Origin: Escherichia phage ECO103 4-12-1
Reading direction: 5' to 3' (one strand)
Length of the DNA: 59,406 bases
Sequence record: OR844651
The notes under the pieces are model-generated. The model was not told the origin of the DNA, did not search any database, and worked only from the letters and a program-made list of their open reading frames with translations. Made by a program: the position numbers and the translations under genes. Position 1 is the stretch's first letter; each line of letters starts with the position of its first letter. Below, piece after piece: positions 22,344 to 49,381 of the stretch.

Positions 22344-22637
22344 TTAGACTTCGTCTTCCGCGCCAGACTTTTTATCGTCTTTGGCGTTTTTCTTAGCACC
22401 GTCAGCCTTCTCGTCTTTTTTGGACGTTTCAGCTTTCGCCTGCTGCGCTGCGGCTTCCTGCGCTGCCTGATTTTCCACGTCAACTTCCATCACCGGGCGG
22501 CCGATGGCATCCGGGTTGATTTTGTTGATGCTGTCCAGTTCGGCTTGTTTGAAATCGAAGATCTCGCCGATGGACGGTTTGATACGCGCGCCGTCGCGGT
22601 AAACGATGACGGTCTGGAGAACTTTACGTTTTGGCAT
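22344..22637 (-). CDS. small head-module protein (gpFI-like position) with acidic -EDEV C-terminus
   Basis: 97 aa, Lys/Ala-rich, ends KKSGAEDEV. Confidence 0.45.
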   Translation of the reverse strand: MPKRKVLQTVIVYRDGARIKPSIGEIFDFKQAELDSINKINPDAIGRPVMEVDVENQAAQEAAAQQAKAETSKKDEKADGAKKNAKDDKKSGAEDEV

Positions 22638-22698
22638 GGCTCTTTCCTCAAAGCGACCCGCCCGGTACAGGCGGATCGTAGGTTTGAATTACGGGTTA

Positions 22699-23763
22699 TT
22701 AGGACATCACGGTCAGCAGGAACGACGCGTTCGGGTCTGCTGGAACCATCAGTGGTGCGCCCTGAGACATCAGGTATTCCACGCTTGGGTCTTCCTGATC
22801 CCACATTTTCGGGAAGTATTCAAGCGCCTGATAGCCCGCGCCTTTATCCAGAATAGCACCGAAGCAACGTACGCCCTCGATCGCCGAGGAAATACCCATT
22901 ACCGCTTTCTGCTTCATCAGGAACTGTTCTTGGTCGTTCTGGTCGCGGTATTTCTGAGTGTTCACCCAAATACGCATACGGCCAGCACCGTTAGCCCCTA
23001 CCAGTTCGCCCATGTACTGAACGCCTTCCACGTCATCCCACAGGCGGGTAACGTTGGTTTCAGAACCACGGATGGTCGAGTCCATCAGGCCATCTTTGCC
23101 CCACAGGTCTTTGCCGCCGACCTTGACGAACTGATCCCAAGCGTCTCCGCCGAAGACGTAGTCGCGGATCACGGTGCCGGACATAGACTTATCGGACACC
23201 AGACGTTGACCATCGCGCAGGTCAGCAATCATGTCCATCAGGGTGACGCCGCTGGCAGTCCAGTCGGTAGTCATGGTCAGCGCTGCATCACGGCCGAAGT
23301 CTACTCGCACCAGCGGGTAGTCCTGACCCTGAACGTCAACGTAACCATACTGCGCAGCCTGCGCCGCCATCCATTCCCACGTATTTTCGTGCATGGCGCG
23401 GTGTTTCATCAGCAGGTAAGCGATGACACGGTCGCGGCGCTGCGCGATAGACAGGGTGCCAGTACCCAACGCTTCACCCGGCTGACGAGGGATGATCATG
23501 TTAGGGTCGATGACGTGTTTCGGCTTCACGTAGGCTGGTTTAAAAGTCTTCGTGTTATAGCCGCTTTCTTTGATCACGCGGCCCTGTACGTTCGGTGCAA
23601 CGAACGGAGCAACGCGGGTTACGTCCTGAATAACTTTATCGAAGGCAATCATGTCTTCCTGAAAGTTAATCTGGCGCGGGAACCATTGCAGGAAGAACGC
23701 AGGCAGCGTTTTCAGCTTGCGCTGTACTTCGAGCAGTTGGTAAGTAGTGTAAAGTCCAGCCAT
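22699..23763 (-). CDS. major capsid protein (lambda gpE family)
   Basis: 354 aa; MAGLYTTYQLLEV, YVKPKH and C-terminal APLMVPADP match lambda gpE from memory. Confidence 0.9.
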   Translation of the reverse strand: MAGLYTTYQLLEVQRKLKTLPAFFLQWFPRQINFQEDMIAFDKVIQDVTRVAPFVAPNVQGRVIKESGYNTKTFKPAYVKPKHVIDPNMIIPRQPGEALGTGTLSIAQRRDRVIAYLLMKHRAMHENTWEWMAAQAAQYGYVDVQGQDYPLVRVDFGRDAALTMTTDWTASGVTLMDMIADLRDGQRLVSDKSMSGTVIRDYVFGGDAWDQFVKVGGKDLWGKDGLMDSTIRGSETNVTRLWDDVEGVQYMGELVGANGAGRMRIWVNTQKYRDQNDQEQFLMKQKAVMGISSAIEGVRCFGAILDKGAGYQALEYFPKMWDQEDPSVEYLMSQGAPLMVPADPNASFLLTVMS

Positions 23764-23775
23764 TTGCGCTGCTCC

Positions 23776-24171
23776 TTAGTACAGATTGCCGATGTGAATG
23801 TTAGTACGGTCAAAGACCGCCTGACGTTTAACGAGCGTATCAACGGTCGCAGGCCAACCGAGGGCCGCGTGGTTGAACACCCCGCCAATGTAGTACGGCA
23901 CGTTCTGGCCGGACTTCGCTGGCTGTGCTGCGATACCGATCGCCGTTGCTTCCGGAGCGTCAGCGGTAGTCGGGTCGTACGGCACCATCGCGCCAGCAGC
24001 GTTCTTCGCGATAACCTGATAGATCGCGATGTCAGCGCCAGCGACGCTACCTTCGGTCACAATATCGGCTTCACCTGCGAAGATTTGGGTTGGCTCCCAA
24101 GAGCCGAGGTCGCCATTTCCCGCCAGATAGTTAGGCAGGCTGGTCGCGGCCATCATAGTCAAAAGATTCAT
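23776..24171 (-). CDS. head decoration protein (gpD-like)
   Basis: 131 aa between protease and capsid genes. Confidence 0.65.
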   Translation of the reverse strand: MNLLTMMAATSLPNYLAGNGDLGSWEPTQIFAGEADIVTEGSVAGADIAIYQVIAKNAAGAMVPYDPTTADAPEATAIGIAAQPAKSGQNVPYYIGGVFNHAALGWPATVDTLVKRQAVFDRTNIHIGNLY

Positions 24172-24185
24172 CCGAAGATCCCCTA

Positions 24186-47165: not shown

Positions 47166-47236
47166 ATCCATAGGACGGCACGCCTGAAAAACGGCGTACC
47201 ACCCTTTTGACCTGACACCCTATAGGACGCACACCG

Positions 47237-47677
47237 ATGAAAACAACGCACCACCCTATTGAACTGAGTCCGGTACGCGACATTGCCCGTACGGCCTTTA
47301 TCTATAAGAAGCCCGGCCAAAAAGAGGGCGAGATCTACATCGAGAAGGACAACGGTGACACCGAGATCGCCACCCCCCTGACCCGCGCGGACGCCATCGC
47401 ATTGATCGCCGGACTGCGTGCCGCCTTCGACCTTCCGGACGAGAACGCCGAGAAGGTAGAACTGCTACAGCGCCGCCTCGACCAGACCCAAGACCACATC
47501 GAAAGTATTTCGCTGGTCACTGCGGCCAACATCATGTTCGAGAATGGCCTGCGCACCGCCGTGCTGACGCCGTCCCGTCTGATCGCCGGGCAGATGCCTG
47601 AACTGGAAATCGACGCGACTCGCCCGGACACCATCACCTACCGTCTGAAAGAGGAACCGCTCAATGCAGCCGACTAA
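47237..47677 (+). CDS. hypothetical early protein
   Basis: 146-aa ORF. Confidence 0.45.
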   Translation: MKTTHHPIELSPVRDIARTAFIYKKPGQKEGEIYIEKDNGDTEIATPLTRADAIALIAGLRAAFDLPDENAEKVELLQRRLDQTQDHIESISLVTAANIMFENGLRTAVLTPSRLIAGQMPELEIDATRPDTITYRLKEEPLNAAD

Positions 47678-47999
47678 TACCGCGTTGATGGTGAACAACG
47701 CCATGCACCCGAAAGGCCGCATCGACGTCGTCCCGGCGTTCCGCGCTATCGAGCGGATCTACAGCGTGACCATCCATGCCACGCACACCGGGATCAAGGT
47801 GTCGTCGGCCACGAATCACCGCGTGACCTTCTATCAGTCCGGCGACCCGGCCATCGCGAAGCACGGCAAGGCCCGTGGCGCGGACGAATGTGCGGCCATG
47901 CGCATGTACATCGTGAAGTTTCTGGATTGGGCCATGACGAATATGCCATGCCCGGAAGTGCAGAATGTCGTCGTGGAGGTGGCTGGTGGAAGGCATTGA
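47664..47999 (+). CDS. hypothetical early protein
   Basis: 111-aa ORF. Confidence 0.4.
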   Translation: MQPTNTALMVNNAMHPKGRIDVVPAFRAIERIYSVTIHATHTGIKVSSATNHRVTFYQSGDPAIAKHGKARGADECAAMRMYIVKFLDWAMTNMPCPEVQNVVVEVAGGRH

Positions 48000-48327
48000 A
48001 TTCGTTCGCGTGCAGTACCAAGAACTGCGCAAAGTCCGGTTAGACCAAATCACCTGCAAACTGTCTGCCCTTGAGACGTTTTTCAAGGACATGGAAGACG
48101 ACGTGCAGGCCCACAGTACCAAAATGCTCGACCTCGCCACGCTGGACAACGACGAGGCGGCGTATAACACGGTCAGCGACCAGTACGCTGAATCAATGGC
48201 GGGCCTTCGGGCGGCCAAAGAAGCACTACGCGCCGCGATGTTCCATGCAGCGCAATCCATGTACCACGGAGCACCAGCCAATTTAATTAACGTAGGAGCC
48301 ATAGAGCATGAAAATCAAGGGTTATGA
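47965..48327 (+). CDS. hypothetical early protein (alternative GTG start at 47986 with GGAGG RBS)
   Basis: 120-aa ORF. Confidence 0.4.
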   Translation: MSSWRWLVEGIEFVRVQYQELRKVRLDQITCKLSALETFFKDMEDDVQAHSTKMLDLATLDNDEAAYNTVSDQYAESMAGLRAAKEALRAAMFHAAQSMYHGAPANLINVGAIEHENQGL

Positions 48328-49381
48328 GAAAGCCATTATCCTGCACCTCGGCGCGCTGTATGACGCGGCCAACGACGGTAACGAGAAGGTCAAGCCGCTG
48401 CACCGCCTGATCCTGAATCTGCCGAACGTTGACGAAGAGGCGGTGACGGCTTTCGCGAAAGGAGCGTTAAGCGATGCACTCGAAAAGCATGAAGTGTCAG
48501 ATCCGCCGGAGGCGTCTTACAAGACAATGGGCTTTGCAGCGTACGGCGAAGAGGTTGACAGCAAATTCGCCCTCGCCATCCCCGGAACAAACGCCATCGT
48601 CTTCCAGATCGAGAAGCGCGAACGTGTGTTGCCCGGCGTCAGCGTACGAAATGAAGTCGTGAAGCGCATGGCCGCGTTGCGGGAGAAAGAGATCGAGGGT
48701 TGGGAGCCGAACCGCAAGGATTGGGCGCAGATGAAGGACGACGTGGAAGCGGAAATGCTGAAACACGCGCCTATCCGCCCGTCCCGCGTCAACGTCATCC
48801 TGTCCGCCCCGTTCGTGTACGTGTTCACGTCGAGCGCGAAGACGGCAGAAGAGTGCAGCGCGCTGATCCGTACCGCGCTCGGCACATGGCCCGTTGAACA
48901 CCTCCTGCCGAGCGAGTATGAGCTGCGCCAGTTAATGCAGCGCGCGGTTCTCGGCCAGCAGGACGGCATCAAAGGCGATGCGTTTATCCACCTGAAACAC
49001 GACGACGGCGACGACGTCAAGATGAAGGACACGGACATCTTCAAAGACGAGGCGGTGATTGACCTGCTGTCCCGCCACTGGACTGTCCGCGCGCTGGATC
49101 TCGAAGTCGATACGCAATGCCCGGGCATCGACACCGTGTACTTCCGCCTGTCCGACAAAGCCATCCTGTCCGGTATCCACATCGGCGAGGCCGACGTTGA
49201 TGCGAACTACGACGCCACGCTCGAACGCTACGGCACCGACGGCGGCCAGTTCCTGACCATGATGGCTAACCTGTTCCAACTCGATAAGTCCCTGCGTGCG
49301 GTGATCAGCGTGCTGGACGAGGCCGGGCAGGTAGTCGAGTACACCGGAACGCTGAACGAAGAAGACGACGACGAGGTTTAA
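48308..49381 (+). CDS. RdgC-like recombination-associated protein, putative, with acidic -DDDEV C-terminus
   Basis: 357 aa; central region resembles E. coli RdgC from memory; ends NEEDDDEV. Confidence 0.45.
   Translation: MKIKGYEKAIILHLGALYDAANDGNEKVKPLHRLILNLPNVDEEAVTAFAKGALSDALEKHEVSDPPEASYKTMGFAAYGEEVDSKFALAIPGTNAIVFQIEKRERVLPGVSVRNEVVKRMAALREKEIEGWEPNRKDWAQMKDDVEAEMLKHAPIRPSRVNVILSAPFVYVFTSSAKTAEECSALIRTALGTWPVEHLLPSEYELRQLMQRAVLGQQDGIKGDAFIHLKHDDGDDVKMKDTDIFKDEAVIDLLSRHWTVRALDLEVDTQCPGIDTVYFRLSDKAILSGIHIGEADVDANYDATLERYGTDGGQFLTMMANLFQLDKSLRAVISVLDEAGQVVEYTGTLNEEDDDEV

Follow-up and report, generated by a model that had tools for sequence, protein, structure and literature searches.

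In phage T4, similar C-terminal peptides on the gp43 polymerase, gp55 and gp33 contact one phage hub, the gp45 sliding clamp. The acidic C-terminus of the Escherichia coli SSB (binding protein for single-stranded DNA), which ends in ..DDDIPF (SSB-Ct), likewise acts as a hub for many proteins of DNA metabolism. In phage T7, the tails of gp4 and gp2.5 bind to, and compete for, a front basic patch of gp5 and a patch in its thioredoxin-binding domain (PMC12339929; 2026 bioRxiv preprint). In crystals of the SSB of phage Enc34, a neighbouring molecule accommodates the acidic tail in its beta-sheet groove, with 842 A2 buried and the last 11 residues disordered (Cernooka et al. 2017, PMC5686142; PDB 5ODJ/5ODK/5ODL). 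Here we analyse a 59,406-bp stretch of DNA from Escherichia phage ECO103 4-12-1 (sequence record OR844651; the whole stretch is called the window in the following), in which a first, sequence-only reading had noticed that eight proteins from different modules share an acidic C-terminal peptide, and had proposed for them a single docking partner on the T7 model or a common targeting or degradation signal. The tails are real and occur far beyond chance, and across the phage family their last residue changes in concert. We consider it probable, at roughly 0.6, that they are shared docking tails for one phage-encoded receptor.

In form the resemblance to T7 is close: a disordered acidic tail with a hydrophobic last residue is found on the SSB and on the primase-helicase of one phage, and the SSB of the Chi-like phages, to which the window belongs, has the gp2.5 fold. 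The two systems differ, however, in the number of carriers, which is two in T7 (gp2.5 and gp4) and 8-14 per genome in the Chi-like family, where the terminase small subunit (TerS), a head-module protein, RdgC, the exonuclease and a methylase are included. They also differ in the tip, which is an essential Phe in T7 but aliphatic (V, I or L) here, F being confined to few lineages such as Cronobacter phage JC01. Moreover, the primase-helicase is of the Prim-Pol/D5 type and not a homologue of T7 gp4, so that a likeness first taken from T7 gp4 is one of analogy and not of homology; in some relatives with tails, a family-B-like polymerase takes the place of Pol A; and the receptor is here a candidate only. 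With E. coli SSB-Ct the tails share an acidic linear motif, a hydrophobic tip, a free carboxylate and an association with many DNA-metabolism proteins, but the topology is inverted: there, one tail serves many pockets, whereas here many tails imply one or few pockets, and the would-be partners (primase, exonuclease, RdgC, helicase and TerS) bear the tail themselves. One phage-encoded hub and C-terminal peptides from different functional modules are reminiscent of T4 gp45; the T4 motif, however, is hydrophobic and not poly-acidic, packaging proteins stand outside the T4 set, and the window yielded no recognisable clamp-like protein. The Enc34 SSB (ORF6) is an orthologue of the SSB of the window, which is 88-90% identical to PDB 5ODJ, and its acidic tail was treated as a property of SSB only, its sharing being unmentioned (PMC5686142). 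In the literature searched, we found no description of a whole-proteome set of acidic docking tails, of a spread over several modules (TerS, head-module protein, methylase, RdgC) or of a repeated concerted re-coding.

The window represents a Chi-like siphophage (genus Chivirus, family Casjensviridae); over the replication region, it shares 98% identity with Salmonella phage ER24 and 96.5% with phage Chi. Mapping 75 annotated Chi genes onto it yielded a curated proteome of 77 proteins. Nine of these end in [DE][DE]V, against 0.09-0.12 expected from composition or internal tripeptide frequency (binomial P=6e-15), and eight end in [DE]{3}V (P=6e-19); the C-terminal motif is found in none of the 1,306 non-annotated open reading frames (ORFs) of the window. 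When T7, lambda and T1 were scanned as control phages, T7 gave one match (gp2.5), lambda none and T1 a spurious one. Lambda Nu1, FI and gpA, examined as precedents for tails on TerS and on the protein at the FI position, have no such tail. Upon re-reading of the ORFs, all eight C-termini and coordinates of the sequence-only reading proved exact (Table 1), as did its partial match on the SNF2 helicase. The RefSeq-annotated orthologues of phage Chi have the same ends, so that the stop codons are not mis-assigned, and Pfam and PHROG scans uphold the functional labels (DUF7443, DUF1441/TerS, Enc34_ssDNA-bd, DUF2800/PD-(D/E)XK, Prim-Pol+PriCT_2+DUF5906, DUF7609, RdgC and SNF2). All eight proteins are thus genuine carriers, but the count was too low: a ninth tail (57506..57673) and two weaker probable members, gp52 and gp55, had been missed. 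Nor is the motif best described by its ending in -EV or -DV, as had been suggested; it is better defined as an acidic run followed by one terminal aliphatic residue (V, I or L, rarely M or F).

Conservation of the tails reaches down to orthologues of 20-40% identity. Providencia phage Redjac (with single exceptions), Klebsiella phage KPN U2874 and Enc34 have all eight tails in the form [DE]n[DE]V; in these phages the protein bodies are 50-85% identical and the linkers vary. Generally, the linkers are variable and rich in insertions and deletions, and the last 3-4 residues are fixed. The distant complete genomes Smarc1, PhAER-6, phiAxp-2 and AH2 bear tails on the same protein families, and the family-wide carriers are the FI-position protein, TerS, the gp2.5-like SSB, the exonuclease, gp4, the primase-helicase and the RdgC-like protein. 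The tail and tip counts come from 60 IMG/VR loci, dereplicated and covering +/-10 kb around the SSB gene at their centre (80 IMG/VR loci show tails in all). A tail is present on SSB in 55 of the 60 loci, on TerS in 39 of 51 orthologues (L17, I12, V9, F1), on gp4 in 27/31, on the primase-helicase in 29/44, on the exonuclease in 30/57 and on the SNF2 helicase in 16/60; it is absent from all 41 orthologues of the DNA polymerase (Pol) and all 43 of the terminase large subunit (TerL). The universal enzymes without a tail are Pol, TerL and, essentially, VRR-NUC. Among 120 SSB homologues retrieved from a large protein database, every one ends in an aliphatic residue or Met (L 72, I 35, V 9, M 4), and the nine V-ending homologues are the nine closest to Chi. 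Tails have been lost from the Redjac primase and from Jing313 TerS, and gained by Chi gp42 and by the helicase in other clades. The peptide thus has the features of a short linear motif, in that it is short, disordered, conserved against a variable flank, and by convergence gained and lost on unrelated proteins; the fluid membership, as read from orthologue comparisons, fits this class well.

How uniform is the tip within a genome? Among strict tails, the window and Chi have V in 9/9; Enc34 has 9 V and 1 I, KPN U2874 9 V and 1 L. L prevails in Serratia phage Smarc1 (12/14), Aeromonas phage PhAER-6 (10/11) and Achromobacter phage phiAxp-2 (9/10), and I is found in 11/11 strict tails of Aeromonas phage BUCT551, namely those of RdgC, primase, gp4, helicase, SSB, exonuclease, TerS, the FI-position protein, a gp52-like protein and two others. 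JC01 (represented by loci L104 and L105) is split, with F on gp4, SSB and helicase and I on TerS, RdgC, gp18 and gp55, a division that could reflect two receptor sites or a transition state. Over the 60 loci, 78.2% of within-genome tail pairs have the same last residue, as compared to 30.8 +/- 2.5% after shuffling (maximum of 5,000 shuffles, 42.3%), a comparison that ignores shared ancestry. Three or more tails are present in 41 loci; in 23 of these all tips agree, and in 37 no more than one deviates. On neighbour-joining (NJ) trees of eight proteins, the tip state takes 5 Fitch steps each: one from L to V (in the Chi clade), three from L to I and one from I to F. Each switch involves 3-11 proteins. 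Judged from these trees, concerted switching of the tip has apparently happened independently at least five times. The code does not follow the host: phages of Aeromonas include the all-I phages BUCT551 and A18P4 as well as the all-L phages PhAER-6 and 13AC503A, and the host of JC01, a phage in the F/I state, belongs to the Enterobacteriaceae like those of the V-state phages. Different tip codes within the same host genus argue against a host receptor and favour a phage-encoded one.

What might the tails do? We envision them as a docking motif. Each tail consists of a disordered run of Asp and Glu, often preceded by an aromatic residue, and a single aliphatic residue, whose side chain would, together with the free carboxylate, constitute the specificity tip. 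It is carried by some ten proteins with roles on phage DNA and with no other relation to one another (SSB, primase-helicase, exonuclease, RdgC-like protein, gp4, gp62, Dam methylase, TerS and the FI-position head protein), and all tails would most probably bind, and hence compete for, the same site of basic-plus-hydrophobic character on one phage-encoded receptor. The principle known from T7, where the tails of gp2.5 and gp4 share sites on gp5, would thereby be widened to a many-spoked hub for replication, recombination, modification and packaging. That unrelated folds have identical tips, and switch them together time and again, is to be expected of one receptor pocket, but not of tails that each serve only their own protein. 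A common receptor as the cause, and its origin from the phage, are what we infer from this pattern.

Alternatively, the shared ends may arise at the level of nucleotides, as a by-product of Shine-Dalgarno (SD) motifs and translational coupling, of terminators, or of gene conversion between gene-end repeats. The words GAG GTG and GAG GTT do hold the SD core; in three cases (TerS, RdgC and the gp42 remnant) an SD-like word is present and a downstream start lies between -11 and +2 nt; and GTT is over-used for the terminal Val (6/9 tails versus 20% GTT genome-wide, P=0.003). The remaining six of the nine tails, however, lack an SD-like word and are followed by gaps of 54-71 nt or by no gene at all, and after three of these six come the region's best terminators, which begin 3' of the stop codon. 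The usual tail codons are GAC GAA GTT TAA, not GAGGTG, and within single genomes Asp (GAT, GAC) and Glu (GAA, GAG) are each encoded by both codons, Val by all four or Leu by all six, and each of the three stops is used. Because synonymous codons and stops vary so freely, selection acts on the peptide; a DNA or RNA signal and gene conversion between tail repeats were rejected on these grounds, as was translational coupling, given that an SD-like word near a downstream start occurs in 3/9 tails only, and we hold a nucleotide-level origin to be hardly credible. A different proposal accepts selection on the peptide but dispenses with the common receptor: the tails could be DNA mimics that act in cis, folding onto the DNA-binding surface of their own protein and autoinhibiting or tuning it. 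T4 gp32 and E. coli SSB are, with T7 gp2.5, the models for such tails, and the tail of T7 gp2.5 competes with single-stranded DNA for its own OB fold. Nearly all carriers bind DNA, and deletion of the Enc34 SSB tail, which sits in the SSB groove in the crystal, unmasks binding to double-stranded DNA (PMC5686142). If the tails acted in cis, however, each fold would need a pocket of its own, and there would be no force towards an identical tip, let alone towards the joint switching of 3-11 proteins at least five times; structure prediction with AlphaFold2 (AF2) gives no confident cis docking for SSB, and gp18, gp4 and gp62 have no known DNA-binding role. We therefore regard autonomous cis action as unlikely, if worth keeping in mind.

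Conceivably, the tail might also be a common signal for turnover or targeting, by which a protease, chaperone or localisation factor would time or place its carriers. C-degrons and PDZ or TPR ligands usually have such a format, with a free carboxylate and one hydrophobic residue in C-terminal position, many carriers are small early proteins without assigned function, and, as such a signal is in effect a single-receptor model, concerted switching would fit it too. The bacterial C-degrons that are known, however, have non-polar ends (ssrA ..LAA, recognised by ClpXP/ClpAP), and in general proteins are stabilised by acidic residues close to the terminus; the tails have a non-polar residue at the final position alone, with Asp or Glu at -2 to -5. 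The Pfam and PHROG scans, which included 20 further early proteins, recovered no PDZ, TPR or clamp-like domain, nor was any protease besides the prohead protease seen in the scanned proteins. The tip is independent of the host genus, which speaks against host proteases setting the code, and the tails of SSB and primase have a well-founded docking role in T7. All this makes a turnover or targeting signal distinctly improbable. Finally, the tails might mimic the tip of host SSB and thereby hijack a host hub, such as an SSB-interacting protein. The format, an acidic run with a hydrophobic tip, is the same, and host SSB-Ct is a known hub with many partners; but the Pro-Phe tip, which in SSB-Ct goes into the pocket of the partner, exists in none of the tails, which end in ..DDEV, ..DDEL or ..DDEI, and the unanimous codes of lineages, exclusively I or L in Aeromonas phages and V or F/I in phages of Enterobacteriaceae, are not explained by conserved host pockets. 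Mimicry of host SSB thus appears very improbable to us.

Docking to a single phage-encoded partner is, then, in agreement with the concerted switching of tips, with the conservation of the tails and with selection on the peptide; its weak side is the partner, Pol A having lost ground as sole receptor. Several observations weigh against it. Neither co-variation scans nor protein trees, the AF2 model of SSB or the domain scans pointed to a receptor. A strict scan over nine proteins (~3,650 aligned columns) found two positions that perfectly separate V/I from L genomes, the last residue of SSB and that of gp4, and no others; no column tracks the tip in Pol, TerL, the SSB core, exonuclease, helicase, primase, TerS or VRR-NUC. 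Columns picked up by group majority (TerL 154/390/293, Pol 79/192/527 and primase 377/751) proved, when the sequences were inspected one by one, to be signatures of clades. All eight protein trees are congruent, with the same 5 steps each, so that tree matching cannot pick the receptor. The AF2 model of SSB, built from an 82-sequence alignment, leaves the tail without confident docking in cis, its predicted local distance difference test (pLDDT) being 52-64 over the last 20 residues versus >95 in the core. As the shuffle above takes no account of ancestry, the independence of the switches rests on the NJ trees. Mixed genomes (JC01, Jing313 and L060) do exist, and uniformity of the tip is hence not obligatory, although these genomes look like intermediates. 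Nor is there an obvious reason for TerS and a head protein to have the same partner as the replication proteins.

Candidates for the receptor of the docking tails are the DNA-binding groove of SSB, the polymerase and TerL. Of these, the groove is the sole site with structural support, the tail of Enc34 SSB in the groove of its neighbour being the only direct experimental contact in the phage family. As for the polymerase, phiAxp-2 and AH2 (loci L015/L016) keep the tails, but the polymerase at the Pol A position has neither a match to the DNA_pol_A Pfam family nor a phmmer match to Chi Pol. Weak PDB matches relate that of phiAxp-2 (L017:6507-8600) to archaeal family B polymerases, which looks like a non-orthologous replacement of the polymerase within one phage family. 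Since relatives with a family-B-like polymerase keep the tails and no Pol column co-varies with the tip, the case for Pol A as sole receptor is weakened. A TPR-like match in Pol residues 498-528 was discarded as spurious, for it corresponds to the conserved fingers hairpin of Pol A. Likewise, gp54 was considered as a universal partner, being absent only from Jing313, whose tails are degenerate, and was dropped because its distant 'homologues' share a short N-terminal motif only. A bolder version, which we advance tentatively and consider rather doubtful, would be a phage-encoded peptide code, in which the hub would physically tie together replication, recombination, DNA modification and packaging and is possibly not the polymerase but, for instance, TerL, the SSB groove or an uncharacterised protein, and in which V, I, L and F are mutually orthogonal specificities that have been re-coded repeatedly. 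If so, re-coding might insulate co-infecting relatives from one another, or allow escape from a host defence that senses the tail tip.

Across a whole virus family, then, about ten proteins of replication, recombination, modification and packaging bear one interchangeable peptide, the tip of which has been re-coded jointly. This offers a testable handle on how DNA transactions are organised in a medium-sized siphophage, as a 10-residue peptide should fish out the hub and the natural V, I, L and F variants are ready specificity controls. If one receptor is indeed involved, it would be a rare natural case of many ligands co-evolving with it. The tails also provide a first functional clue for DUF7443, DUF7609, phrog_7721 and phrog_6886, and suggest an unexpected physical link of terminase and head-completion proteins with the replisome.

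Table 1. Tail-bearing proteins of the window, weaker or partial members, and tailless receptor candidates.
Protein	Position	Strand	C-terminus and remarks
gp18, 97 aa, lambda-FI position (DUF7443, phrog_7559)	22344..22637	-	tail ..KKSGAEDEV
Terminase small subunit TerS (DUF1441, phrog_141)	29505..30074	-	tail ..GDEVDDDEV
T7 gp2.5-type SSB/annealing protein (Enc34_ssDNA-bd, DUF2815, PF10991)	33978..34574	-	tail ..DEDEDWEDEV
Cas4-like PD-(D/E)XK exonuclease (DUF2800, phrog_69)	34629..35966	-	tail ..AWDDEDDDEV
gp4, 134 aa (phrog_7721), no assigned function	36351..36755	-	tail ..NSEEDDV, then a strong terminator
Primase-helicase (Prim-Pol + PriCT_2 + DUF5906/VapE-like)	37276..39861	+	tail ..DPFDDEDEV
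gp62, 123-aa early protein (DUF7609, phrog_6647)	46794..47165	+	tail ..DVSDDDEV
RdgC-like recombination-associated protein (PF04381, phrog_724)	48308..49381	+	tail ..NEEDDDEV
gp42 remnant (PAPS-reductase/NinC-like)	57584..57673 (longest ORF from 57506)	+	tail ..FDEDLEGDEV
Dam-type DNA adenine methyltransferase gp52	52601..53287	+	short tail ..MWDEI; probable weak member
gp55, 246 aa (phrog_6886), no assigned function	50087..50833	+	ends ..LTEGEVEI; possible weak member
SNF2-family helicase	30061..31590	-	ends ..VWDDEE; aromatic-acidic, without terminal aliphatic residue; partial match
Family A DNA polymerase	31872..33911	-	without tail; receptor candidate by analogy with T7 gp5
Terminase large subunit TerL (lambda gpA type)	27440..29515	-	without tail; candidate receptor, for TerS and gp18 at least

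The lineage codes can be followed on individual proteins. Orthologues of gp18 end in ..DDEV or ..DEEV in the V clade, in ..DDDL, ..EEDL or ..DEDL in the L clade and in ..NDDEI in BUCT551, and those of the RdgC-like protein in ..DDEV (V clade), ..DDEL, ..DEEL or ..DGEL (L clade), ..DDGEI (BUCT551) and ..DDDDI (JC01). Exonuclease tails end in V, L or I, depending on the genome. The C-terminal segment of the SSB is strongly acidic (..DAWDEDEDWEDEV). The tail of gp62 is kept in Enc34, KPN U2874 and Redjac and absent in more distant orthologues. What places gp52 and gp55 among the weaker probable members is that their orthologues retain acidic residues with an aliphatic one at the C-terminus: ..WDEI or ..WDEV (V clade), ..FDDL (Jing313), ..NEDEEL (PhAER-6) and ..MEEEEI (BUCT551) for gp52, and ..EEDVEI, ..EEDIEV, ..EEDVEI and ..TDEESI for gp55. 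The SNF2 helicase has full tails in other clades, namely ..FDDDDL in Smarc1, ..AVEEEL in PhAER-6, ..EEDDEI in BUCT551 and ..AVEDF in JC01.

The ninth tail belongs to what is left of gp42. In the window, an in-frame deletion has joined the N-terminal 17 aa to the C-terminal 12 aa and retained the tail. Full-length Chi gp42 (299 aa) ends in ..CEPFQSDLFDEEFEDDEV, and its orthologue in the Klebsiella phage KPN U2874 stops at ..CEPFMGD; as the Chi tail extends past the conserved CEPF at which the latter ends, it points to a clear lineage-specific gain. Adjoining the remnant is a 94-aa ORF (57670..57954; phrog_18367) that does not occur in Chi and has homologues in Enc34, Jing313 and Smarc1.

A second class of C-terminal motif combines Trp with acidic residues, as in the ..VWDDEE end of the window helicase (30061..30080). 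Elsewhere (loci L038, L043, L044, L047-L049 and L057), exonucleases end in ..WDD or ..WDDE and primases or helicases in ..DTWE or ..EEW, and an internal [WFY]D[DE][DE] lies inside many full tails. Three outgroup loci (L097, L098 and L099) have yet another end shared by two proteins, Leu or Met-Leu followed by a terminal Asp (SSB ..DSDSMLD, primase ..NLLD).

At the nucleotide level, the start codon of TerL (29515) falls within the tail codons GAT-GAA of TerS (29505..29530), and the first 'DEV' of ..GDEVDDDEV supplies the TerL Shine-Dalgarno sequence GAGGTG, so that the DNA of the TerS tail is dual-coding. In relatives, the terminal Val is encoded by GTT in 2-4 of the V-ending tails; its over-use in the window may be a codon-context effect before the stop. 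Strong hairpins resembling intrinsic terminators lie directly 3' of SSB (33932..33954), gp4 (36316..36335) and the primase-helicase gene (39870..39890), the last of which has no gene downstream. A divergent pair of promoter-like sequences of the TTGACA type is located between gp4 and the gp3-primase operon (36808..36955).

Some features concern the genome at large. The intervals 40259..41220 and 44377..45000 of the window are without counterpart among annotated Chi proteins, and Chi gp67 and gp72 have no match in the window; the former suggests local mosaicism of the early region. Several short records labelled as Staphylococcus, Listeria or Enterococcus phage (OR850235, OR848586 and others) are ~99% identical to Chi-like phages and probably mislabelled or contaminant.

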